Counted from the stretch's first letter, positions 5,147 to 49,683 are shown. The stretch is 64,000 nt of DNA from an uncultured Bifidobacterium sp. (GCA_964491875.1 CAZBIC010000004.1:52669-116668), one strand, 5' to 3'. The notes: generated by a model from the sequence alone, not told the origin. Program-made: numbers and translations.

Positions 5147-5920
5147 ATGCTGGCCCGAAGAGTTATTCCCTGTCTGGACGTTCACGGTGGTCAGGTCACG
5201 CGCGGCGTGCAGTTCGGCAAGGCCGAGGCTGGCGAGCTGCGCAATGTGGGCGATCCGGTCGAACTCGCTTTGCGTTACAACGAGCAGGGCGCGGACGAGA
5301 TGGTGTTCTTCGACATCACGGCGACGGCGCACGGGCGGGGGACGATCGTGGATGTGATCGAGCGCACGGCGGACCAGTGCTTCATGCCGCTGACGGTCGG
5401 CGGCGGCATTCGCACCGTGGACGATATGCAAACGATGCTGCGTGCGGGAGCGGACAAGGTGAGCATCAATTCCTCCGCCATCGCGACGCCGGATTTGATT
5501 CGCACGGGCGCGGAGAAGTTCGGCAGCCAGTGCATCGTGGTCTCCATCGACGCAAAAAAAACGGGCACCGACAAATGGGAGGTTTTTGTGGCGGGCGGGC
5601 GGAAGGCAACCGGACTCGACGCCATCGAATGGGCGAAGAAGGCCGTGGCACTGGGAGCAGGGGAGATCGTGCTAAACAGCATTGATGCGGACGGAACAAA
5701 GGCGGGCTTTGACCTCGTGGTGACGCGGCGCATCAGCGAATCGGTCGGCGTGCCGGTCGTGGCGAGTGGTGGCGCCGGGACGTTGCAGCATATGGCGGAT
5801 GTGCTGAATGAAGGCAAGGCGGACGCGGTGCTGGCCGCGAGCATTTTCCATTTCGGAACGTATACCGTGGGCGATGTGAAACGGTTCCTCGGTGAACGAG
5901 GAATTCCGGTCCGCCTCTAG
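5147..5920 (+). CDS. hisF: Imidazole glycerol phosphate synthase cyclase subunit HisF
   Basis: 257 aa. [24 protein letters not shown] and ASGGAG motifs, with full-length HisF-like organisation. Confidence 0.95.
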
Positions 5921-5952
5921 CACGGGTTTCAACGGTCCTTTGACCAGCTTCC

Positions 5953-6372
5953 ATGAACGATCTCATTCAAACCCGTTGGCTTCCCATCGCGCTGCTTGTC
6001 GGTTCGAACGTTTTCATGACGTTTGCGTGGTACGGACATCTCAAGCACAAGGATCAGCCGATCTGGCTGGTAATTCTCGTGAGCTGGGGCATCGCCTTCT
6101 TCGAGTACTGCCTGATGGTGCCGGCGAATCGTTGGGGTAGCGGACGCTATACGGCGACGGAGTTGAAGATTATCCAAGAGGTTGTGACGTTGACGGTCTT
6201 CAGCGGCTTTGCGGTGGCTTACCTCGGAGAGAAGATTCGATGGAATCACGTAGCGGCGTTCCTTTGCATCATCGCGGCGGTCGGGTTTACGTTTTTGCCG
6301 AAGTCGGATCGAACATCGAACGCGGTACAAGCGGAGCAGGGCGAGCGGGCGAAAACGTTGCCGAAACCGTGA
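5953..6372 (+). CDS. DMT-superfamily small membrane protein (DUF486 type)
   Basis: 139 aa and 4 TM. SNVFMTFAWYGHLKHK ... SWGIAFFEYCLMVPANRWG is characteristic of the DUF486/DMT family. Confidence 0.8.
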   Translation: MNDLIQTRWLPIALLVGSNVFMTFAWYGHLKHKDQPIWLVILVSWGIAFFEYCLMVPANRWGSGRYTATELKIIQEVVTLTVFSGFAVAYLGEKIRWNHVAAFLCIIAAVGFTFLPKSDRTSNAVQAEQGERAKTLPKP

Positions 6373-6434
6373 CGCCGTCGCGAGCGAGAATTCCAGACGT
6401 GACTTGAGGCAGGCGCCATTTCATTGTCCGGCCT

Positions 6435-7085
6435 GTGCGAAGTGTGTTTTTAGGTTTTCTGTTCGGGATGATTCTTGGAGCCTCCTCGGGCTGTAAACCG
6501 GAGCAGTCGACGTCGGCGAAAAGCAATGCAACCACTCCAACAAACGAAGGTGCAAAAACTGTGAGCGCAAATACCAACGAAGTGGCGGTGATCAAAACGA
6601 GTGCGGGAGAAATGGTCGTTGAATTCTGGGCCGATGTGGCGCCGAAGACGGTCGAAAATTTCAAGAAGCTGTCGAGGGATGGCTTTTACGACGGCACGGC
6701 GTTTCACCGAATCATCAAGGGATTCATGATTCAGGGCGGCGATCCGTTTACAAAGGACGCCAGCAAGGAAGCGTTCTGGGGCACGGGCGATCCAGGCTAC
6801 AAACTCAAGGCGGAGTTCAACGATCGTTCGCATCAGCGCGGCGTGCTCTCGATGGCGCGCTCGCAGCATCCGGATTCGGCCGGCAGCCAGTTTTTCATTT
6901 GCCTCGGTGACGCGAGTTTCCTCGACCGGCAATACACGGCCTTTGGCAAAGTGATCAAGGGTGACGATGTGCTCGGTAAGATCGGCGATACTCCGGTGAA
7001 GGCGAGCGGCGGCGAGGCGAGCAAGCCAACGGTGCGCGTTGCGGTTGAAGGAATCAAAATTGTTCCCGCGAACACCGTTCAGTAA
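6435..7085 (+). CDS. Cyclophilin-type peptidyl-prolyl cis-trans isomerase, predicted lipoprotein
   Basis: GTG start. Lipobox LGASSGC. Cyclophilin motifs FHRIIKGFMIQGGDP, GVLSMARS, GSQFFI. Confidence 0.9.
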   Translation: MRSVFLGFLFGMILGASSGCKPEQSTSAKSNATTPTNEGAKTVSANTNEVAVIKTSAGEMVVEFWADVAPKTVENFKKLSRDGFYDGTAFHRIIKGFMIQGGDPFTKDASKEAFWGTGDPGYKLKAEFNDRSHQRGVLSMARSQHPDSAGSQFFICLGDASFLDRQYTAFGKVIKGDDVLGKIGDTPVKASGGEASKPTVRVAVEGIKIVPANTVQ

Positions 7086-40431: not shown

Positions 40432-41892
40432 TCAAGTCACCACAGCCTTCACCACGTTGCCGTGGATGTCCGTCAGGCGATAACGCCGGCCCTGGTGCTT
40501 GAAGGTCAGTTTCTCGTGATCAATGCCAAGCTGGTGCAACACCGTCGCCTGGAAGTCGTGGACATGGACCGGGTCGATGACCGCGTTGTAGGAGAAATCA
40601 TCCGTCTCGCCGTAGCTCATGCCCGGCTTGAAGCCGCCGCCTGCCATCCAAATCGTGAAACAACGCGGATGATGATCGCGCCCGTAATCGTCCTTCGTCA
40701 GCTTTCCTTGCGAATACGCCGTGCGCCCGAACTCGCCGCCCCACACCACAATCGTGTCATCGAGCAGCCCGCGTGACTTCAAGTCCGTCACCAGCGCCGC
40801 GCACGCCTGATCCGTCTTCGCGCACTCGTTGCGAATGCTGCGCGGCAATCCACCGTGATGATCCCAGCCTTGGTGGTAGAGCTGGATGAACCGCACATCG
40901 CGCTCAGCCATGCGCCGTGCGAGCAGACAATTCGCGGCGAACGTGCCGGGCTTCTTCGCGTCGTCGCCGTAGAGCGCGAACGTCGCGTCGGATTCCTTCG
41001 AGACATCCATCACGTCCGGCACGGAGGTCTGCATCCGATAAGCCATCTCATACTGCGCCACGCGCGAGTTGATGTCCGGATCGCCGAGGTCGTTGTATTG
41101 CACCTCGTGCAGCTCCGCGAGCCGGTCGAGCAGCTTGCGCCGGCTCTCCGCCGTCACGCCGGCAGGGTTGTTCAGGTAGAGCACCGGGTCCTTGCCCGAG
41201 CGGAACTGCACGCCCTGATGCAGCGACGACAGAAAGCCATTTCCCCACAAGCGCGAGTAGAGCGGCTGGTCGCGATTCGCGTTCTTGGAAATCAGCACCA
41301 CGAAAGCGGGCAGATTGTCATTCGCGCTGCCGAGACCGTAGCTGAGCCACGCGCCCATCGAGGGACGCCCCGCAATTTGCGAGCCGGTCTGGAAGAACGT
41401 GATGGCCGGGTCGTGATTGATGGCCTCGGTGTGCAGCGATTTGATGAAGCACAGGTCATCGACGATCTTTGCCGTGTGCGGGAGCAGTTCGCTCACCCAC
41501 GCGCCGCTCTTGCCGTGCTGCTGGAACTTGAACGCCGAACCCGCCAGCGGCAGCGACGACTGGTTGCCCGACATGCCGGTGAGCCGCTGTCCCATGCGCA
41601 CCGACGCCGGCAGCTCCTGGCCGTTCAACTCGTTCAGCTTCGGCTTGTAGTCGAAGAGATCCATTTGCGACGGCCCGCCGCTCATAAAGAGATAGATCAC
41701 GCGCTTGGCCTTCGGCGCGAAGTTCGGGAAGCCCGGCAGCCCCTGATACGGATTCGCGCTCGCGACCGCCGTGCGCGCCGCCTGAGCAGCGGGGTTGAAT
41801 AATCCCGCCAGCGCCACGCCGCCCAGCCCGAGGGCGAAGCGCCCGAAGAAGTCGCGCCGGTTCATGCCGAAATTGAGGTGGTTGCAGTTCAT
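40432..41892 (-). CDS. DUF1501 domain protein (sulfatase-like, Tat-exported)
   Basis: Tat motif [18 protein letters not shown]. Length and overall sequence character match the DUF1501 family that partners DUF1549/DUF1553 proteins. ATG 41892 is 2 codons inside the TTG-started ORF. Confidence 0.85.
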
Positions 41893-41953
41893 AGACAATA
41901 CTTCGTGAAAGTGATCTGGCTGTGTGATGGAGAATGCATAGAGTGCGGAAGTC

Positions 41954-42598
41954 TCAATCCCATGGGACTTCTGGTTTCAGTGCATATCGCGTAAATCTCC
42001 CGAAGTTGTTGAAAGAAACAATCTCTCTCGAATACTTCATCATTCTGCAAAGCTCAAAGACTGGGCGGATGTAGTCACCTTTTATGCCGGTCCCAATCAG
42101 AACGGCCTTAATCTCGGCTTTGATGAATTTGAATTTTTCGTCATGGCCAAAAACTAATCGATACTCCTCCTCGTGTTTCCAATGATGCGACTTAAAACGT
42201 AGTCGATCCTTCGTTCCGGCTTTCTCAAGCGGAGACATGTCTTCAAGGTATTCCACTTTAATTAAATCGTGCTCAAATGGTGTCATGTCTAACTCCAAGC
42301 AAATGCCGGAATGTCCATTTCCATAATATGACCACATCAGAATCGATTCCGGATTTGCCGAGAAGCAACAGACCCGAAAACGATCTACTTCATCTAGCGA
42401 TGCTAGAGCAAATTTGACTGATTCGTCGAATTTGGACGAGGCGTTCGTGGTGTCTTTCGAGCTTGGTTGCGATACTCCGAATAAGCCCTCCAATGGATCA
42501 TTCAGCTCAGATGCATTCGGGCAATACAGTCGCTTGGTAAGGAGAGTGTCTGCGACGTGGACGAACGGCTCTAGGTTTTTGAACTTGTAGAGAATCAC
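41954..42598 (-). CDS. DUF2971 family protein (function unknown), low-GC gene
   Basis: GTG start. [10 protein letters not shown]...[15 protein letters not shown] and [26 protein letters not shown] match the DUF2971 signature pattern. Markedly AT-richer than its neighbours. Confidence 0.7.
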
Positions 42599-42849
42599 TT
42601 GAAGAAGGGTATTGGTCGTTCGCCGAGGTCTGAAATGCCGTCACATAACAGCACGGGACGTGGCACCAGGTAATTGATTCCCGAAACAGATCCAGCCCTG
42701 AAGGGGCGGAACAAACTTGAATCGTCCGTCGTGTCGCCCTGACAGGGCTCACGACTCTCCGCGACCCCGAACTCAGGGCGTTGCCCTGGGCTGTCATCTC
42801 GCGCCCCTTCGGGGCTGGGGAAATGCTCATCGCGGAGCGATGGGGTGAG

Positions 42850-42912
42850 GGTAGCCGTGGGCTTCAGCCCACGGTAAGGCGCCGAACCACACCCGCGTCG
42901 CGTAGCGACGCC
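42850..42912 (-). repeat. ~62-nt double-hairpin element, copy A (inverted relative to copy B)
   Basis: The reverse complement GGCGTCGCtacGCGACGC-N20-CCGTGGGCtgaaGCCCACGGCTACC aligns with copy B. Confidence 0.7.
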
Positions 42913-42940
42913 TGACCTTCCACCACGACCCACATTCATC

Positions 42941-43002
42941 CGTCGCTCCGCGACGCCACCGAGCCGCACGTCCTCCACCGTGGGTTCAAACCCACGGCTA
43001 CC
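42941..43002 (+). repeat. ~62-nt double-hairpin element, copy B
   Basis: CGTCGCtccGCGACGC-N21-CCGTGGGTtcaaACCCACGGCTACC. Confidence 0.7.
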
Positions 43003-43181
43003 GTCGGTGCCTCGCTCCGCGAGGCGGGCGGAAATAGTTGAACAGCACTTCATCGTATGGTCGGAAGTTCAGACGGTGAACCTGCTCTGTTCATTGCAGA
43101 AATATCCGGACTCCGCCGTTCGCAATCAAGCCCACCGTTCCTGGTCTCTGCGTTTCGGTGGCGGGTTGGCGTGTCGTCGTT

Positions 43182-43223
43182 CTCACCCCTCACCCCGGCC
43201 CTCTCCCCGTTGAGGGGAGAGGG
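43182..43223 (+). repeat. 42-nt repeat, copy a
   Basis: CTCACCCCTCACCCCGGCCCTCTCCCCGTTGAGGGGAGAGGG. Contains an internal 10-bp stem CCCTCTCCCC/GGGGAGAGGG with loop GTTGA. Confidence 0.9.
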
Positions 43224-43374
43224 GGCGTGGAGGGCGTCTTTTGTTGGTTCATCGTTCAGTGCCGCGCTCGTTGCATTTTTGCTTCGCTGTGAATTTCGTA
43301 TCGGTGTGCAAAACCCGAAGCGCCACGAACGCGGCGACGTATGTTCGATCCTCAACGCGGTCCCATCGCGAACT

Positions 43375-43416
43375 CCCTCTCCCCTCAACGGGGAGAGGGC
43401 CGGGGTGAGGGGTGAG
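43375..43416 (-). repeat. 42-nt repeat, copy b (exact, inverted)
   Basis: Exact reverse complement of copies a and c. It is 151 nt from copy a and 24 nt downstream of the DUF559 stop codon. Confidence 0.9.
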
Positions 43417-43440
43417 GCGGTTCGTGTGATCCCCATCTGC

Positions 43441-43938
43441 TCAACGCACCTTCGGCGGCATCCGATTCGGTCGCAGCGGCACCTTCGCATCCGGCGGAGG
43501 CAGCGGCCAGGTGCGCGACCGTGCTTCCGGCGTTACCGGCACGTTCTCCGGATGCGGCGCGCGTTCCTGCAACAGCAGCCACAAATTCTCTTTCACCATT
43601 TCCGGTTGCTGGCGCACCTGCGAGTTCCAGAACCGTTTCGTCACGATGCCGCGTGAGAGCAGATACGCTTCCTTGGCTTCATCCCGCTGCTGCTGGTCGG
43701 GGAATCCATGTTGTCCACCGTCCAATTCGAGCGAGAGCTTTGCCTCCGCGCAATAGAAGTCCAACGTGTAACGGCCGAGCGGATGTTCGCGACGGAACTT
43801 GTAGCCCGCGAACCGACGGTCGCGCAGCAACCGCCACATCCTCCGCTGCGGCTCGGGCATCTTTTGACGCAGAGCGCGGGCGCGGTTGGTGGGATTCCTT
43901 CGAGGAGCGGAAGGTTCTGGTAGTTTCTCACCCCTCAC
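43441..43938 (-). CDS. DUF559 (Vsr-like endonuclease fold) domain protein
   Basis: NRARALRQKMPEPQRRMWRLLRDRRFAGYKFRREHPLGRYTLDFYCAEAKLSLELDGGQH is the DUF559 signature. The maximal ORF (to 44028) runs through repeat copy c, so the start is uncertain (GTG 43938 inside the repeat, or ATG 43860). Pro-rich C-terminal extension. Confidence 0.7.
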   Translation of the reverse strand: MRGEKLPEPSAPRRNPTNRARALRQKMPEPQRRMWRLLRDRRFAGYKFRREHPLGRYTLDFYCAEAKLSLELDGGQHGFPDQQQRDEAKEAYLLSRGIVTKRFWNSQVRQQPEMVKENLWLLLQERAPHPENVPVTPEARSRTWPLPPPDAKVPLRPNRMPPKVR

Positions 43939-43968
43939 CCCGGCCCTCTCCCCGTTGAGGGGAGAGGG
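43927..43968 (+). repeat. 42-nt repeat, copy c (exact)
   Basis: Identical to copy a over 43 nt (TCTCACCCC...GAGAGGG). Overlaps the 5' end of the DUF559 ORF. Confidence 0.9.
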
Positions 43969-44024
43969 AGCGCGAACGACGGCTTCGGTCGAGGCATGGC
44001 CTTCACCGCGTTTGGAGTGTTCGC

Positions 44025-47000
44025 TCACCGCTTCAAAATCGCCTCGTCAAAGTTCATCACCGCGCTGGCCACCGCAGCAGCGGCGGCGAGTTCGGCGCGA
44101 TCGAGTTTCGGGTCGATGGCTGATTCGCCAATCTTCAGCGAAGCCTCGGCATTGGCCTTGTCCGCACGGAAGAGGGCGAGTTGATCGTCGCGCAGCTTTT
44201 GCAGGATGCGGAGCTCGCGCGTCGTCGGCTTGCGTCCGGTCAGGAGGCGAAATGTTTCCGTCACCTGTTCCCGCGGCTCACCCGGATTTGACTTCAGCAC
44301 CTGCTCGCCGATGCGGCGGGCGGCTTCGAGCATCTGCGGGTCATTCAGCAGCACGAGCGCCTGGAGCGGCGTGCTCGTGGGCTGACGCCGGACGACGCAC
44401 GTGTTCCGCTCGGATGCGTCGAAGGTCGTCATCATCGGGTGCGGTGCGGTGCGTTTCCAGAACGTGTAGAGGCTGCGGCGATAGAGTCCTTCTCCTTTGT
44501 CCGGCGTGTAGCTGGAGCCAGCGGTGTCTTCCCAAATGCCCTCGGGTTGATACGGCTTCACGCTCGGGCCGCCGAGCTTTTGGACGAGCAACCCGGACGC
44601 CGCGAGCGCTTGATCGCGCAACATTTCAGAGGTGAGACGCGTCTTCGGTCCGCGGGCGAGGAGCTTGTTGTCGGGATCGCGCGCGAGCAGTTCCGGGCTA
44701 GCCTCCGACGATTGCCGGTAGGTAGCGGACGTTACGATGAGTTTGCAGAGCGCCTTGAGGTCCCAACCGATTTCCATGAAATGCATCGCAAGCCAGTCGA
44801 GCAATTCAGGATGCGTAGGCAGCGCGCCCTGACTGCCGAAATCTTCCGCGGTGAGCAAGAGGCCGTGGCCGAAGAAGTTCTGCCAGTAACGGTTCACGAG
44901 CACGCGCGCGGTGAGAGGGTTCTGGCGGTCGACGAACCATTGTGCGAGGCCAAGGCGATTGCGCGGGAGCTTCGGATTCATCGGCAGGATGTTCGCCGGC
45001 GTGTCCGGCTCGACGGTCTCGGCGCGCTTGTCGTATTCGCCGCGCTTGAGGACGTAGGTCGGACGCGGCGTCGGCAAATCGCCCATGCCCATGATTTCAG
45101 GGATGCGGTTGATGAAGTTATTCTCGTCGTCGCGGAGTTTCTTCAGTTCGGCGAGCTGCTTCGCGAAACCTTCGTCGGCGGTGGCGAGATAGTAATCCAA
45201 CGCCGCAGCGCGCTCGGCGAACTGCAGGCTACCATTCACCGTTGGAAAGGCGCCCCCTAGTTCGTGCATCTCCACCGCACTCAGCCGGCGGTTGAAGACC
45301 TTCAGCTCGTCGATCATGCCGTCCTTGAATCCGCGGCTGCGGAAGCGCGCGGCGAGCGCGAGCGGCTGGCCGTTCGCGAATTCCTTGGTGAGCTTGTCTT
45401 TCTCCACCTCCGTGGCGGCGGTTTGACCATTGACGAAGAGCTTCAGACCCGCGGCGCGGCTGGAGCCGTCGTAGGTGACGCCGACATGGGTCCACGCGTT
45501 GAGCGGGAGTTTGTCCTTGGTGCGGACCTTGATGGCGTTGCCGGGCCAGAAATGAATCAGACCGAAGCTGGCGTGGCCGTCTTCGAGCACGAGTTGATAG
45601 CCTTGGTAGCCGGAGTCAGAACCGGCTTGCTGATGGTGCAGCACGACAATCTCGGGCAGTTCCTCGGAGGGGTTGATGTAGAGGCTGAATGAGAACGGAT
45701 CGGTGCGTTTGAAGTCCGCGAACTTGTCGATGCGCACAGAGTTTTCGCCATCAAACTGGAGCGCCTGACCGAATCGACCTGTCACGCTCTTCGGGCCTTC
45801 GGAGAGCTTCGCGTGGAAGTTCGTCGCGGCCAGATTGCGCGATGTGGTGTTCGTGACATTGTCGAATGAGTAGTGGCCGATCAACCCTCTCTCAGTCCCG
45901 AAGGAAGGAAATCTTTGTCGAGAGGAGGCGTCCTTCGGCTCCGGGGATTCCCCTCTCCTCACTCCTGCGTCATGGGGCGAGGGAATGGTCGCACGCGCTG
46001 AGGCGTTCGACGCTTTGGCTTCAGCCAGCCACTTATCAAACGCCGGCTTGGCAGAATCTCGATACGTCTCCAGTTCCTTTTCCTTCGAGGCGACCGCTTG
46101 CTTGAGCGCGCGGTGTTTCTGCTCTTCGCCGTCCTTGTAGAGCAGCGTGGTCGGCGTCGGGATGGCGTCGGTGAAGTGCGAGTAGAGGCCGGATTCGTCG
46201 GTCGAGTTGAAGAACGCGAAGAGGCGGTAGTAATCTTTCTGCGAGATGGGATCGTATTTGTGGTCGTGACAACGCGCACACTCCATCGTGAGCCCGAGGA
46301 ACGCGCCCCCGAGCGTGTGGACGCGGTCAGCGTTGTATTCGACTCGGAACTCTTCGTTCACACTGCCGCCCTCGTTGGTCTGGCGATGCAGGCGGTTGAA
46401 CGCTGTCGCGACTTTCTGATCCTGCGTGGCGTCCGGCAGGAGGTCGCCGGCGAGTTGTTCGATGATGAACTGGTTGATGCGGATGTTGCGATTGAACGAT
46501 TTGATGACCCAGTCGCGCCACGGCCAGAGGTGATTGATGCGGTCGGCCTGATATCCGTAGGTGTCCGCGTAGCGCGCGACATCGAGCCACTCAACGGCCA
46601 TGCGCTCGCCGTAGGCCGGCGACGCGAGCAATCGGTCCACGACCTTCTCGTAGGCGGTCGATGATTTGTCGGTGAGGAAGGCATCCACCTCGGCGGGCGT
46701 CGGCGGCAGGCCGGTGAGATCGAGGCTCACGCGGCGGAGGAGACGTTCCTTCGTGGCTTCCGGGGCAGGCTTGAGCTTCTCGGCTTCGAGCTTTGCGAGG
46801 ACGAAGCGGTCGATATCGTTGCGCGCCCACTTGCGGTTCTTCGTTTCGGGCACGGCGACATTGCCGACGGGGATGAATGCCCAGTGCTTCTTCCATTCCG
46901 CGCCTTGCTCGATCCATTTCTTGAGCAGCGCGATTTCGTCCGTGCTTAGCGCGAGATTCGCTTTTGGCGGGGGCATGACTTCGTCGGGATCGGTGCTGGT

Positions 47001-47312
47001 GAGGCGATGCAGCAGTTCGCTCTTTGCCGGGTCGCCGGGCTTGATGATGAACTTCCCGTCCTCCAGCGCCTTAAAGGCGCCTTCCGGAGTGTCGAGGCGG
47101 AGCTTGCCTTTGCGCGCCTTCTCGTCGGGGCCGTGACAGAAAAAGCAGCGGTCCGAGAGCAGCGGCTTGATGTGGTAGTTGAAATCGACGCGAGCCGGAA
47201 GCGGCGCGGCAAAAGAGGGCAGTGCCGCCAACATGGCGGCTCCCAACGTGACAAGGAAGCGGATTGGTCGGGAACCGGCGTTCTCAGTGGTACCGGGGCT
47301 GTTCATGGTCAT
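44025..47312 (-). CDS. PSCyt1 / DUF1549 / LamG-like / DUF1553 protein (planctomycete-type cytochrome c domain protein)
   Basis: Signal peptide, then heme motif CFFCHGPDEKARKGKLRLD. DUF1549-like region (RRVSLDLTGLPPTPAEVDAF), CARCHDHKYDPI, and DUF1553-like C-terminus. Start is ATG 47312 or 47306; the track ORF extends to 47384. Confidence 0.9.
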   Translation of the reverse strand: MTMNSPGTTENAGSRPIRFLVTLGAAMLAALPSFAAPLPARVDFNYHIKPLLSDRCFFCHGPDEKARKGKLRLDTPEGAFKALEDGKFIIKPGDPAKSELLHRLTSTDPDEVMPPPKANLALSTDEIALLKKWIEQGAEWKKHWAFIPVGNVAVPETKNRKWARNDIDRFVLAKLEAEKLKPAPEATKERLLRRVSLDLTGLPPTPAEVDAFLTDKSSTAYEKVVDRLLASPAYGERMAVEWLDVARYADTYGYQADRINHLWPWRDWVIKSFNRNIRINQFIIEQLAGDLLPDATQDQKVATAFNRLHRQTNEGGSVNEEFRVEYNADRVHTLGGAFLGLTMECARCHDHKYDPISQKDYYRLFAFFNSTDESGLYSHFTDAIPTPTTLLYKDGEEQKHRALKQAVASKEKELETYRDSAKPAFDKWLAEAKASNASARATIPSPHDAGVRRGESPEPKDASSRQRFPSFGTERGLIGHYSFDNVTNTTSRNLAATNFHAKLSEGPKSVTGRFGQALQFDGENSVRIDKFADFKRTDPFSFSLYINPSEELPEIVVLHHQQAGSDSGYQGYQLVLEDGHASFGLIHFWPGNAIKVRTKDKLPLNAWTHVGVTYDGSSRAAGLKLFVNGQTAATEVEKDKLTKEFANGQPLALAARFRSRGFKDGMIDELKVFNRRLSAVEMHELGGAFPTVNGSLQFAERAAALDYYLATADEGFAKQLAELKKLRDDENNFINRIPEIMGMGDLPTPRPTYVLKRGEYDKRAETVEPDTPANILPMNPKLPRNRLGLAQWFVDRQNPLTARVLVNRYWQNFFGHGLLLTAEDFGSQGALPTHPELLDWLAMHFMEIGWDLKALCKLIVTSATYRQSSEASPELLARDPDNKLLARGPKTRLTSEMLRDQALAASGLLVQKLGGPSVKPYQPEGIWEDTAGSSYTPDKGEGLYRRSLYTFWKRTAPHPMMTTFDASERNTCVVRRQPTSTPLQALVLLNDPQMLEAARRIGEQVLKSNPGEPREQVTETFRLLTGRKPTTRELRILQKLRDDQLALFRADKANAEASLKIGESAIDPKLDRAELAAAAAVASAVMNFDEAILKR

Positions 47313-47553
47313 TGCGGATATAGCTTTGATGGGACCGGAAGCTGCGTATTCGGAATATTCCTGGAGCGTATTCATCAATCCCACAACGAGAAAGATGCTA
47401 ATGGAAAATTCAGGTCCTCCGATTCAAGCGGTGTAGCGGTCGCGTATCAAGGCGCGAAAGCTCGGTTGCCGGGTCAACTTAGGTGGGCCAGGGGCGAACC
47501 GGTTGTCATTCGAAACGATCTCTTGTCAGCCAGGGGCTGGCAGGTGTGGGCAA

Positions 47554-49683
47554 ATGATCAAACGATTCACCGAGCAACGCGGCCGTTCACTTGGAGTCAC
47601 CTTCAAGGAGGCCGTTTCCATTGTGGGCGCGGGCTGTGCCCGTTTTACCCGCCGATTTTCCGGCCACGCTTCGTCGCGGCCGATTTCATCCTCCGTATCG
47701 GGAGATGCCAATTCCGAGTCTCAATCCTTCGAGCTGGTCGGTGCAGACCAATTCTTGTCCTCACCCGCAATTGATACGCTCAAGGAGGGCGAAGCCATTC
47801 TTCAGGAAGTTTCCCAGAGCGTTGAGAAATGTTTCCTCGGCCTGGGTTACGTGCTGGAGAAACTGCCGGGGGTGAGCGAGCGGCTGGTTAAACAGAGCCA
47901 GCGATACTCCGAAGTTTCATCCGGACGCGCCTCGGGCAATGCGACATTTGAAGAGACGATTCAGCTGATTGAGGAACCGTTGGCGTTCATTGACCAGAGC
48001 CAGGACGAAGTTCGGAAGTTGATTGGCGCACTGGAGGAATTGCAGCAGCGAATTCATCGCTTGATTGCCTCCGAGGATTCGTTGAACCGGGCCGTTGCTC
48101 CGCTGACCTATATCCAGACTTTGTTCCGGGTCGAATCCACCGGATTGCCCCACGCCGTGCAGCAAATGTTCCTCGCGTTGACGGAAGACATCGAGCGGCT
48201 GCACGAACGGGTGAGCCAGACCTTCGGCGAAAAGTTCGCCGTGCTGCGCGTCGCCAACAAAACCATCCAGCGCGTCGCCAGCCAACTGCGCGAAGAGATT
48301 CGTTCGAATGGCACGGCCTTGCGCGACCAGCGAAAGAAGGTCGAGGCGGCGCTCGCCCAGCTGAATCTCGATCTCAAAGCCAACGAAGCACGTGGCGTCC
48401 AGTTGAACAGCGTGAGCCGGGTGATTGAACGGGAGGCGGGCATGCTCGTCATCAGCCTCCAGGCGCAGGATATCGTGAGCCAAAAGCTGGCGCACATCGT
48501 TGGGGCGCTGTCACAGGTGCAAGCGCGGATGACACCCGAAACGTGGCTGGCGCCGCGCGAAAGCGCCCGGCAGGACATCGCCTACTGCGCGGTTTCCAGC
48601 CGGCTCCAGGCGACGCAGCTTGAAGGTGTGGGAGTCGATCTCGACCAGGCCCATCAGCAGATCGAGCGGGCGACGGTCGAGATCGGAACGCAGGTTCGCA
48701 AACTGGAGGAAGACTACCTGGGAACGGACAGCCGGCAGCAGAATGCCGCGGGCACGGACGCATTGATTCAGGTGCTGCTCGATACGATGGCTGAGGTTCG
48801 CGCCATGAGCGATCGCGCGGTGAATTCCGCGGAGAAAGCGTTCGCGGCGATCAGTCCGATTGGCGGCATGGCCTCCAACCTAACCGGCGTGATGCGGCAG
48901 CTCTCGGCGCAGATTCATTTGATCGCGCTCAATGCCCAGGTCCAGGCGGCGCACAATTGCGGCGGGACCGGCCTGGAAGTGCTGGCGTCGAGCACGGCGA
49001 CGATCTCCATCGAGACGAGCGAGATCAGCGAACGCGTGGCGAGCGGCGTGGATGCGTTGACCGAGGAATTGAACCGTCTCGTGGCGGCCTTCGCGAAGTT
49101 GCGTGATGACGGCGCGACGCAGCGCGATCGCATGTCTGCTCTCGGCCGGACCAAGGAGGGCGAACTGAACTCGATTCGCGAAGGGACGGGGAAGGAGTTG
49201 GGTGCCCTGCGCGAAAGCGTTCACCAGATCCGCGGTCATCTGGAGTCGATGGAGAAGGAGAACCAACTGCCGACCATTGCTGGCGAGAAGCTCACCCGGC
49301 TGTCCGAAGTGCTGGTGGCAGCCGCGAACACGATGGAGGCACCGCTCAAAAGCGCCGGCGTTGTCATCAATCCAGCGTCGTTCTCGGCGGAGCTGTCCAA
49401 GCGCTACAGCGTCGCTTCCGAGCATGAACTGCATCGGCGGTTCTTCAACGAGCCCGGCGCCAAGGCGTCACCTGCGCCGTCATTGGCCAGCAAGCAGACG
49501 GACGATGACATCCTCTGGGGCGATCCCTCCACGGAGTCCGCGCCCGCGGTGTCCGACCCGGCGGCAACGGTCCCGATTCGGGGCGACACGGTCGTGGTGG
49601 CGGTTGGCTCCGCTTCGAATGAAGCGACCGCCGCTGAGAAGAAGAAGGACGAATCACTCGGGGACAATGTTGATCTCTTTTGA
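47554..49683 (+). CDS. Soluble coiled-coil protein with a degenerate MCP-signalling-like segment, first gene of the che cluster
   Basis: ORF trimmed to ATG 47554. No TM helix. LSAQIHLIALNAQVQAAHNCGGTGLEVLASS aligns without gaps to the canonical tip [32 protein letters not shown] of the neighbouring MCP but lacks EAARAGExGxGF. Also contains LQAQDIVSQKL (DxxxQ). Confidence 0.65.
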   Translation: MIKRFTEQRGRSLGVTFKEAVSIVGAGCARFTRRFSGHASSRPISSSVSGDANSESQSFELVGADQFLSSPAIDTLKEGEAILQEVSQSVEKCFLGLGYVLEKLPGVSERLVKQSQRYSEVSSGRASGNATFEETIQLIEEPLAFIDQSQDEVRKLIGALEELQQRIHRLIASEDSLNRAVAPLTYIQTLFRVESTGLPHAVQQMFLALTEDIERLHERVSQTFGEKFAVLRVANKTIQRVASQLREEIRSNGTALRDQRKKVEAALAQLNLDLKANEARGVQLNSVSRVIEREAGMLVISLQAQDIVSQKLAHIVGALSQVQARMTPETWLAPRESARQDIAYCAVSSRLQATQLEGVGVDLDQAHQQIERATVEIGTQVRKLEEDYLGTDSRQQNAAGTDALIQVLLDTMAEVRAMSDRAVNSAEKAFAAISPIGGMASNLTGVMRQLSAQIHLIALNAQVQAAHNCGGTGLEVLASSTATISIETSEISERVASGVDALTEELNRLVAAFAKLRDDGATQRDRMSALGRTKEGELNSIREGTGKELGALRESVHQIRGHLESMEKENQLPTIAGEKLTRLSEVLVAAANTMEAPLKSAGVVINPASFSAELSKRYSVASEHELHRRFFNEPGAKASPAPSLASKQTDDDILWGDPSTESAPAVSDPAATVPIRGDTVVVAVGSASNEATAAEKKKDESLGDNVDLF

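Follow-up and report, generated by a model that had tools for sequence, protein, structure and literature searches.

A candidate defence gene of the DUF2971/PDC-S31 family in a small integrase-less variable hotspot between PSCyt-type and DUF1501 genes

The question raised by the locus studied here is what has come to lie between two genes that are normally adjacent. In a stretch of DNA of 64,000 nucleotides (nt) (GCA_964491875.1, CAZBIC010000004.1:52669-116668), to which as a whole we refer as the window, the genes for a PSCyt/DUF1553-type protein and for a DUF1501 protein are separated by 2.13 kb (41893-44024). We found in this interval a candidate defence gene of the DUF2971/PDC-S31 family, lying in a small variable hotspot that has no integrase. 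The interval is a mosaic of separately acquired pieces, in our judgement probably built up at a recombination-prone spot, in which the DUF2971 protein would most likely be a stand-alone abortive-infection effector, like Aristaios. The closest relatives of the locus are Pedosphaera-like Verrucomicrobiota, its host being likewise a Pedosphaera-like soil bacterium, and the finding places a candidate defence gene of this family in Verrucomicrobiota, in which, to our knowledge, almost no phage defence has been studied experimentally. The locus is also a natural experiment, in that six or more low-GC cargos, unrelated to one another, have entered the few-base junction of an ancestrally coupled gene pair with no integrase involved, which makes the turnover of small cassettes testable.

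The interval between the PSCyt-type and DUF1501 genes

Reading the minus strand from 47384 to 40432, the gene order is the PSCyt-type protein, a DUF559 open reading frame (ORF), about 0.84 kb without a credible ORF, a DUF2971 ORF and DUF1501. ORF and Pfam calls confirmed in this way the order proposed in a first-pass annotation made from the sequence alone, which had described the ORF-free part as hairpin DNA. The upstream partner, hence the left flank, is a protein of 1119 amino acids (aa) with the domains PSCyt1, PSCyt2 (DUF1549), Laminin_G_3 and PSD1 (DUF1553) (44025-47384, minus strand; Pfam E-values 8.5e-103, 3.1e-89, 1.1e-20 and 2.8e-17). The downstream partner, on the right flank, is the DUF1501 protein (40432-41892, minus strand; Pfam 9.1e-162), whose true start is the ATG at 41892 according to the alignment with relatives. 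The remaining ORFs of the interval had no family match in the Pfam scan and overlap repeats, and they were taken as spurious.

We took as the gap the nucleotides between the PSCyt-type gene and the start of DUF1501, counted in DUF1501 relatives from genomes and metagenomes. Its median over 139 loci was 24 nt and its 90th percentile 305 nt, and gaps > 600 nt were found only in the window's own lineage and in two other loci. The pair is normally contiguous, hence the 2.13 kb present in the window are inserted DNA; on both points the first-pass annotation was right. The interval is not an assembly artefact, because seven independent short-read assemblies are 100% identical to the window over 43209-40066, which comprises the spacer, DUF2971 and DUF1501. 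In a metagenome scan for closer relatives, DUF1501 identity was never above 82%. Among more distant PSCyt-DUF1501 pairs, L080 and L107 have long gaps (~1.9 kb and ~0.8 kb).

The insertion had been described as low in G+C (GC) and rich in repeats over its 2.1 kb. Its repeats are indeed far beyond chance, but low GC is limited to 41893-42622 (730 bp), with a value of 0.451, versus 0.632 for 42623-43084, 0.612 for 43085-43440 and 0.635 for 43441-44024. The compositionally foreign part is only about one third of the interval, and the other 1.4 kb are host-like. For the DUF2971 gene the foreign composition claimed by the first-pass annotation holds, and its hand counts of G+C (22/60 at 42001-42060 and 41/60 at 41701-41760) are exact. 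The DUF2971 ORF has a GC of 0.45, in the lowest 0.14% of 645-nt windows across the 64 kb (z = -4.2), and a GC at third codon positions (GC3) of 0.50, versus 0.78-0.84 in the neighbouring genes.

We compared the window with the related loci L175, L001, L088, L176, L179 and L095; the percentages given with them here are DUF1501 identities to the window. In the window the PSCyt gene is followed by the DUF559 gene with its 44-nt repeats (43441-44028 for the ORF), by a conserved segment of 97 nt that we call P (43085-43181, minus strand; 74-79% identity in blastn, and junction alignment), by two palindromic elements of ~200 nt, element 1 (42823-43027) and element 2 (42620-42822), and by DUF2971 and DUF1501. 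L179 (88%) has PSCyt, element 2 alone (239 nt) and DUF1501, which we consider the 'empty' state. L175 (95%) is without DUF559 and has PSCyt, element 2, a 512-aa low-GC gene and DUF1501. In L001 (94%) the order is PSCyt, DUF559 with repeats, P, genes for a 222-aa HEPN-like and a 377-aa protein, and DUF1501; in L088 (94%) it is PSCyt, extra repeats, DUF559, P, genes for a PDZ-domain protein and a 196-aa protein, and DUF1501. Both L176 (90%) and L095 (82%) are without PSCyt: the former has half a repeat, P, a 210-aa and a 196-aa gene ahead of DUF1501, and the latter has element 1, a P-like segment and an Abi_alpha gene in that place. Six different cargo states (window, L001, L088, L175, L176 and L095) are thus found at the 5′ edge of DUF1501.

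The junctions define the pieces. The window is homologous to L001 and L088 through PSCyt, DUF559, the repeats (85-86% nucleotide identity for DUF559 with repeats) and P, up to 43085, and the next homology is at the DUF1501 ATG, where right-hand homology resumes in every genome compared. Between L001 and L088 the flanks are 97% identical, and the cargo is wholly different between identical breakpoints. Relative to L179 and L175, the DUF2971 cassette (42622 to 41893) is inserted in the last ~10 nt of the 239-nt spacer, and the 512-aa low-GC gene of L175 has the same place relative to this spacer. Since the pieces are distributed differently across the relatives, they have separate histories, and DUF559 and DUF2971 are not one mobile unit. 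The first-pass annotation had taken the layout as that of a small mobile or defence-type cargo: the defence-type character of DUF2971 was borne out (PDC-S31, 7e-43), and the grouping of DUF559, repeats and DUF2971 was not.

As for the content of the slot, the L001 cargo (6207-6875) encodes the 222-aa HEPN-like protein, with a weak Swt1-like HEPN match (E 0.026) and an RNVILH motif, plus the 377-aa protein, and the L095 cargo (5203-5976) encodes Abi_alpha (PF14337 4e-11; PDC-S47). The PDZ-domain protein of L088 has a lipoprotein-type signal, from our reading of LLSGC. No defence match was obtained for the cargo proteins of 512, 377, 279, 210 and 196 aa. We graded defence-likeness as strong for DUF2971/PDC-S31, moderate for Abi_alpha/PDC-S47 and weak for the HEPN-like protein. 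Cargo and neighbour proteins showed no homology to one another in an all-against-all BLASTP, the sole exception, seen with blastn, being the 196-aa gene, whose family is unassigned. It lies directly upstream of DUF1501 in both L176 (6388-6978) and L088 (7705-8295), with 81% nucleotide identity, which makes it an older occupant of the slot, as opposed to a recent arrival. For the first-pass annotation, a routine separation of such pairs by unrelated genes in this lineage would have counted against an insertion. The pair is in fact often split, but the intervening genes differ in every relative, which indicates a turnover hotspot and is no argument against insertion.

The DUF2971 gene and its likely role

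The low-GC part is a one-gene cassette (41893-42622, minus strand) made up of 24 nt, the DUF2971 ORF and 61 nt, with boundaries set by alignment with L179, L175, L001 and L088. The ORF (41954-42598, minus strand, GTG start) encodes a protein of 214 aa that matches the PADLOC hidden Markov model (HMM) PDLC04991 of PDC-S31 with an E-value of 7e-43 (144.7 bits; residues 1-196 on model positions 1-190 of 208), and four further PDC-S31 models match it as well. The Pfam DUF2971 match (PF11185, 1.3e-5) reaches 26.9 bits versus a gathering cut-off of 22, with only 26 of the 89 model positions matched; all 49 aligned homologues are above this cut-off. Kinship with DarT/AbiGi through Pfam cross-hits was considered and dropped, as the scan of the 49 homologues gave none.

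Positions K5, N33-D34-P35, W89, Y92, G98, Y117, K136, W140, E143, E145 and R147 are conserved at >=90% in the 49 homologues and 149 diverse representatives. These residues are kept in the window, and therefore the gene looks intact and functional. The family comprises 6,539 clusters at 50% identity with E <= 1e-3, while the subclade of the window consists of 7 clusters at E <= 1e-30, the nearest homologue being 59% identical; the only closer sequences found are copies 100% identical to the window gene in short metagenome contigs. Among the relatives compared, the cassette is unique to the window genome, where it is identical in 7 independent assemblies. A 110-aa protein (P0315) that could have been a truncated variant results from an internal ATG chosen by the gene caller, its DNA being 100% identical.

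The neighbours of the homologues differ. In L084 (8971-11230 region) the homologue is beside HEPN_AbiU2 and a 325-aa protein that is unannotated and has the motif RNYAQH (Rx4H), those of L085-87 adjoin Hypoth_Ymh, and that of L083 is alone among housekeeping genes. In the window, DUF2971 is the only ORF between the hairpin DNA and DUF1501, hence a single-gene organisation. We found no gene for a DarG-like macrodomain antitoxin beside it, since downstream 61 nt separate it from the DUF1501 ATG and the DNA upstream of it is ORF-free and rich in hairpins. Distant homologues were found on plasmids (155 records) and on phages or satellites (9 records).

DUF2971 can no longer be called a family without known function, as it was in the first-pass annotation. 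Aristaios (pUCCL641_199), a DUF2971 protein of 316 aa from a lactococcal plasmid, is a single-gene antiphage system with an abortive-infection phenotype and a predicted fold like that of ADP-ribosyltransferases (ARTs) (PMC11381338), and a Legionella survey predicted DUF2971 to be an ART, placing it close to DarT/AbiGi in the H-Y-E clade and noting an ExE motif and a Tyr that is strictly conserved (PMC12522546). By analogy to that survey we mapped Y92, E143 and E145 of the window protein to the motif II Tyr and the motif III ExE. ART chemistry can thus be proposed from the literature and from motif conservation. An AlphaFold2 model of the protein (mean predicted local distance difference test 89) gave in Foldseek only weak, non-significant ART matches (NarE, E 0.5; DarT, E 0.71), and profile searches of PDB sequences gave no matches. 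The window protein shares with DarT/AbiGi-type ARTs, its neighbours in the literature, the conserved Tyr and an ExE-like Glu pair, but no significant fold or sequence match and no adjacent DarG-like gene, and it differs from H-Y-E ARTs in that the motif I histidine is replaced, the N-terminus being Y4-K5.

On these grounds we consider the DUF2971 protein a candidate single-gene abortive-infection effector. It resembles PDC-S31 in the full-length HMM match and in being a single gene, but it is not embedded in a defence system and lies inside a PSCyt-DUF1501 operon of a verrucomicrobium. It resembles Aristaios in its Pfam family (PF11185, a likeness at family level only), in being a single gene and in its location on accessory DNA, whereas Aristaios has 316 aa and is on a plasmid and the window protein has 214 aa and is chromosomal.

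Origin of the interval and competing explanations

The interval could have been assembled as follows. The DUF559 gene, framed by inverted 44-nt repeats, would have landed right after the PSCyt stop, long enough ago for two relatives to share it. Two ~200-nt palindromic elements ended by Acido-Lenti-1 would have filled the spacer, one of them predating all else: element 2 is older than the other pieces because in the empty relative L179 it makes up the whole spacer between PSCyt and DUF1501. The latest event would be the placement of the 730-bp low-GC DUF2971 cassette in the last ~10 nt before the DUF1501 start, the point occupied by other, mutually unrelated low-GC genes in related genomes. 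For these cargos we favour a route of two steps, first an illegitimate insertion and then homologous recombination in the conserved flanks, by which cargo would be swapped between strains; the few bases before the DUF1501 start may be among the few places tolerating an insertion without harm to either gene. Upon phage infection the ART-like site (Tyr92, Glu143-x-Glu145) would be triggered, a nucleic acid or an essential protein would be modified, and the infected cell would stop growing.

The slot is similar to known integrase-less hotspots flanked by core genes in its conserved flanks, in a different low-GC cargo in each relative and, as it appears, in an excess of Abi-type genes (DUF2971, Abi_alpha, HEPN-like). 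Unlike them, it is very small (0.7-1.8 kb, one or two genes) and lies inside an otherwise translationally coupled pair, with a right boundary that is always the start codon.

Several observations weigh against a mosaic at a recombination-prone spot with a defence gene as its latest piece. We found no target-site duplication, no att-like site and no recombinase that accounts for the coinciding cargo boundaries. The PDC systems are candidates obtained by 'guilt-by-embedding' in BREX, DISARM and type I restriction-modification loci (bioRxiv 10.1101/2024.01.29.577857). Defence-like cargo sets are only two or three of the six, the others having no recognisable family. Finally, PSCyt is not upstream of DUF1501 in L095, L176 and L191 (82-90% DUF1501 identity), and therefore a part of the variation is larger rearrangement. 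For the same reason synteny in the clade seems to break generally at the 5′ edge of DUF1501. Downstream of DUF1501, L176 has purH, as the window does, and L191 has another neighbour; the DUF1501 of L191 might be a paralogue.

Among the other explanations, a chimera or a mis-join at the repeats is practically negligible: short-read contigs do break at the 44-nt repeat, five of them ending exactly at 43209, but the seven assemblies agree fully across the junctions from that point on, and the order PSCyt, DUF559, repeat and P is reproduced in L001 and L088. The interval could also be one composite mobile element, in which DUF559, the repeats and DUF2971 moved together, with the nuclease serving mobility or homing and DUF2971 as cargo. 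DUF559 and DUF2971 are adjacent, the former is flanked by perfect inverted repeats, and a homing endonuclease of a group I intron belongs to the Vsr/DUF559 fold group (PMC3424549). This account is nevertheless already contradicted, and we hold it to be very improbable, as the DUF559 part is host-like in GC (0.635) and the DUF2971 part is not (0.451), an ancestral spacer separates the two, DUF559 with repeats is kept in L001 and L088 with other cargo, L175, L095 and L176 have cargo without DUF559, and DUF559 modules at other loci are cargo-free. That DUF2971 is foreign and yet not anti-phage, being an ART that is selfish and toxin-like or serves as an effector (as proposed for certain DUF2971 proteins of Legionella) or another accessory enzyme, seems to us rather unlikely. 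About 18% of DUF2971 proteins are predicted effectors (PMC12522546), PDC-S31 is a candidate family only, no defence island surrounds the gene in the window, and several cargos of the slot have no defence signature; but neither a signal peptide nor a context of secretion is evident, the protein is matched best by defence-candidate HMMs, antiphage activity has been validated for one DUF2971 protein (PMC11381338), homologues neighbour Abi/HEPN genes, and the slot has also been held by Abi_alpha and by a HEPN-like protein.

There is also the choice between random insertion with homologous exchange and a cassette mechanism like that of integrons, site-specific for the first bases of DUF1501. The latter would account for six different cargo states that all end at the DUF1501 ATG, five of which begin at or just after a shared 'ATGAACA(A/G)AG' (the window's copy being ~470 nt upstream of the DUF2971 cassette), and for insertions in the window and in L175 that are both within the last ~10 nt of the 239-nt spacer. 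ATGAAC itself, present at both junctions in the window, L001 and L088, would fit this mechanism too, but as a target-site duplication or core site it is at most a minor candidate: the right-hand copy is ATGTCC in L095, and the junction alignment has no conserved motif at the right cargo ends. Moreover, no integrase, transposase or phage gene was found within ~12 kb on either side, no attC-like hairpin is 3′ of the cargo genes, and the hairpins of the window, unlike those of integron cassettes, are 5′ of DUF2971 and absent from other cargos. The 196-aa gene common to L088 and L176 indicates that part of the 'cargo' is vertically inherited, and if insertions that disrupt either gene are selected against, those that persist would also cluster in the short spacer. 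We thus regard a site-specific mechanism as improbable, and random insertion with homologous exchange as the better account.

The DUF559 gene, the palindromic elements and the surroundings

The DUF559 ORF (43441-44028, minus strand) encodes a predicted Vsr-like PD-(D/E)xK endonuclease of 195 aa, whose domain (43576-43890) matches PF04480 with 8e-30 at model positions 4-106 of 109 and NCBIfam PRK09767 with 1e-24, under the equivalog cut-off. Another protein, P0059, is 97% identical to it. The GTG start overlaps the PSCyt stop (GTGA). The ATG used as start in L088 (6001) and L091 is mutated in the window (AGG) and in L001 (5199-5330), and in these two a 43-codon extension of the ORF (43860-44028 in the window) is open through the repeat to a GTG or ATG overlapping the PSCyt stop. 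This arrangement suggests that DUF559 is translationally coupled to PSCyt.

The 44-nt repeat is a hairpin with a 10-bp stem, CCCTCTCCCC-N5-GGGGAGAGGG, followed by the tail CCGGGGTGAGGGGTGAG. Two perfectly complementary inverted copies, 510 nt apart, bracket DUF559: the left, gene-proximal copy (43927-43970) is 5′ of the DUF559 domain and within the long ORF, and the right copy (43373-43416) begins 25 nt past the DUF559 stop. With a further copy the latter forms a doublet like a REPIN, that is, a hairpin-forming pair of repetitive extragenic palindromic (REP) sequences (43178-43420; inverted copies 43182-43223 and 43375-43416, 151-nt spacer), whose 42-nt arms are 100% complementary and which folds as one long hairpin (-89.5 kcal/mol, z = -13). 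Three copies of the 42-44-nt repeat are present in the window versus 0 expected, and the hairpin motifs are confined to the interval within the 64 kb. Contigs L081, L082, L186, L188 and L190, from independent short-read assemblies, end exactly at 43209, inside the third copy, which implies, indirectly, that the repeat is multicopy in the source genome.

The layout of repeat, DUF559, inverted repeat, ~124-141 nt and repeat recurs in L088, L091-94 and L180, with the third copy 124-141 nt downstream in L092/L093, L088 and L180. The DUF559 gene of L091-94 is a 77%-identical paralogue at an unrelated locus, that of L180 is 55% identical, and the repeat without DUF559 is found in L176. Repeat copies are 95-100% identical between genomes and loci (0-2 of 42 nt differ), while the DUF559 cores there are 71-86% identical (window, L001, L088, L091-94 and L175); the repeat is therefore under much stronger conservation or homogenisation than DUF559. 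In many distant DUF559 homologues both the N- and the C-terminus include a translation of the repeat ('LSPSEGERAGVRG…HPALSPSDGERV'). For annotation in the Planctomycetes-Verrucomicrobia-Chlamydiae (PVC) group, this means DUF559 genes framed by highly conserved palindromes at several loci across >45% protein divergence, and, as many predicted ORFs run through the repeats, gene calls that are spurious or extended are likely to be common. The repeat is also in-frame within the PSCyt gene of L001 (3967-4008), L088 (4444-4485) and L175 (3705-3746), translated as '...STPSPLNGERAGVRGE...' in a linker of variable sequence that joins LamG to PSD1; it is absent from the PSCyt gene of the window.

In the searchable literature we found no description of this architecture, which is possibly an undescribed module and a side finding separate from the DUF2971 gene. 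No linked cytosine methyltransferase was present among ORFs of >=230 aa within ~12 kb on each side, and the linkage of Vsr to a methyltransferase is not obligatory: the Caulobacter DUF559 protein VsrA, which causes DNA damage at unmethylated sites, is a case (PMC12907096). DUF559 genes are moreover 14-fold enriched among predicted targets of programmed inversion (PMC9881135). One could imagine an undescribed partnership similar to that of REPINs and REP-associated tyrosine transposases (RAYTs), in which the Vsr-like nuclease would recognise the hairpin repeats of Verrucomicrobia and mobilise or maintain them, and in which its DNA breaks would help to make neighbouring DNA, such as the 5′ edge of DUF1501, a gene-capture hotspot. 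The likeness to REP/REPIN-RAYT systems is a nuclease-type gene flanked by an inverted, dispersed palindromic repeat, with doublets that have a 124-151-nt spacer; the differences are that the protein is a Vsr-like PD-(D/E)xK and not an HUH/Y1 (IS200/IS605-like) transposase, that the repeat has no GTAG/CGTC tag, and that the gene is at more than one locus across related metagenome assemblies. We keep this idea as an unproven lead and judge it unlikely.

Segment P is common to L001, L088 and L176, and L095 has a P-like segment. Two weak hexamers of sigma-70 type lie in P, TTGATT (43124-43129) and GATATT (43101-43106) with a 17-nt spacer, followed after 6 nt by an ATG (43092-43094). A leaderless promoter was considered here and set aside, since the match is below the threshold of the consensus scanner and the pattern is not seen before long ORFs in the window; a promoter role of P can be suggested only weakly.

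Both palindromic elements are similar to miniature inverted-repeat transposable elements (MITEs). Element 1 has inverted arms (42830-42875 and 42977-43022), CCGTGGG..CCCACGG hairpins and a DNA fold with z = -4.9, and its homologue in L095 (4845-5046) aligns in both orientations. Element 2, with a fold z of -2.6, is 72-74% identical to the whole L179 intergenic region (6787-6991) and to L175 4967-5166. The Rfam motif Acido-Lenti-1 (RF01687) matches element 2 at 42772-42816 (plus strand) with 38.7 bits versus a gathering score of 37, and an end of element 1 at 42829-42874 with 25.3 bits, below threshold. It occurs inverted at both ends of the homologous elements of L179 (6792-6836 and 6944-6988) and L175 (4967-5011 and 5119-5163), with up to 50.5 bits in L179, which suggests that here it acts as a MITE-like terminal inverted repeat and not as a free-standing RNA gene. 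This reading of what was known as a small RNA ('sRNA') motif may be of use in annotating genomes of the PVC group. The score is that of Acido-Lenti-1 RNA, while the position at inverted ends of ~200-nt palindromes and the verrucomicrobial host are not. Compared with insertion sequences or transposons with terminal inverted repeats, the elements have no transposase family match and no duplication evident at their ends. A 'GGTTCAAACCCAC' hairpin was rejected as a tRNA or att site, as ARAGORN found no tRNA in the window. The Acido-Lenti-1 motif is also present at L095 4846-4892.

Within ~12 kb on each side of the interval there are genes for CorA, two-component and sigma-54 regulators, a porin, a Wzz/ParA-like protein, purH and chemotaxis. 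Elsewhere in the window, patches of low GC (~11.2-12.1, 13.0-13.5, 26.5-27.2, 34.3-36.3 and 55.5-56.0 kb) were considered as comparable foreign DNA and rejected, their GC being 0.49-0.53 and none being like the 0.45 of DUF2971. By Pfam, two ORFs in these patches are a porin (BBP2_2) and a Wzz/ParA-like protein, and the remaining ones resemble, by eye, a pilus-assembly protein and a response regulator. A 726-aa ORF (47503-49683, plus strand), divergent from PSCyt, had no Pfam match at E <= 1e-5. Upstream of PSCyt the window has a context unlike that in L001, L088 and L175, where DUF748 is found.

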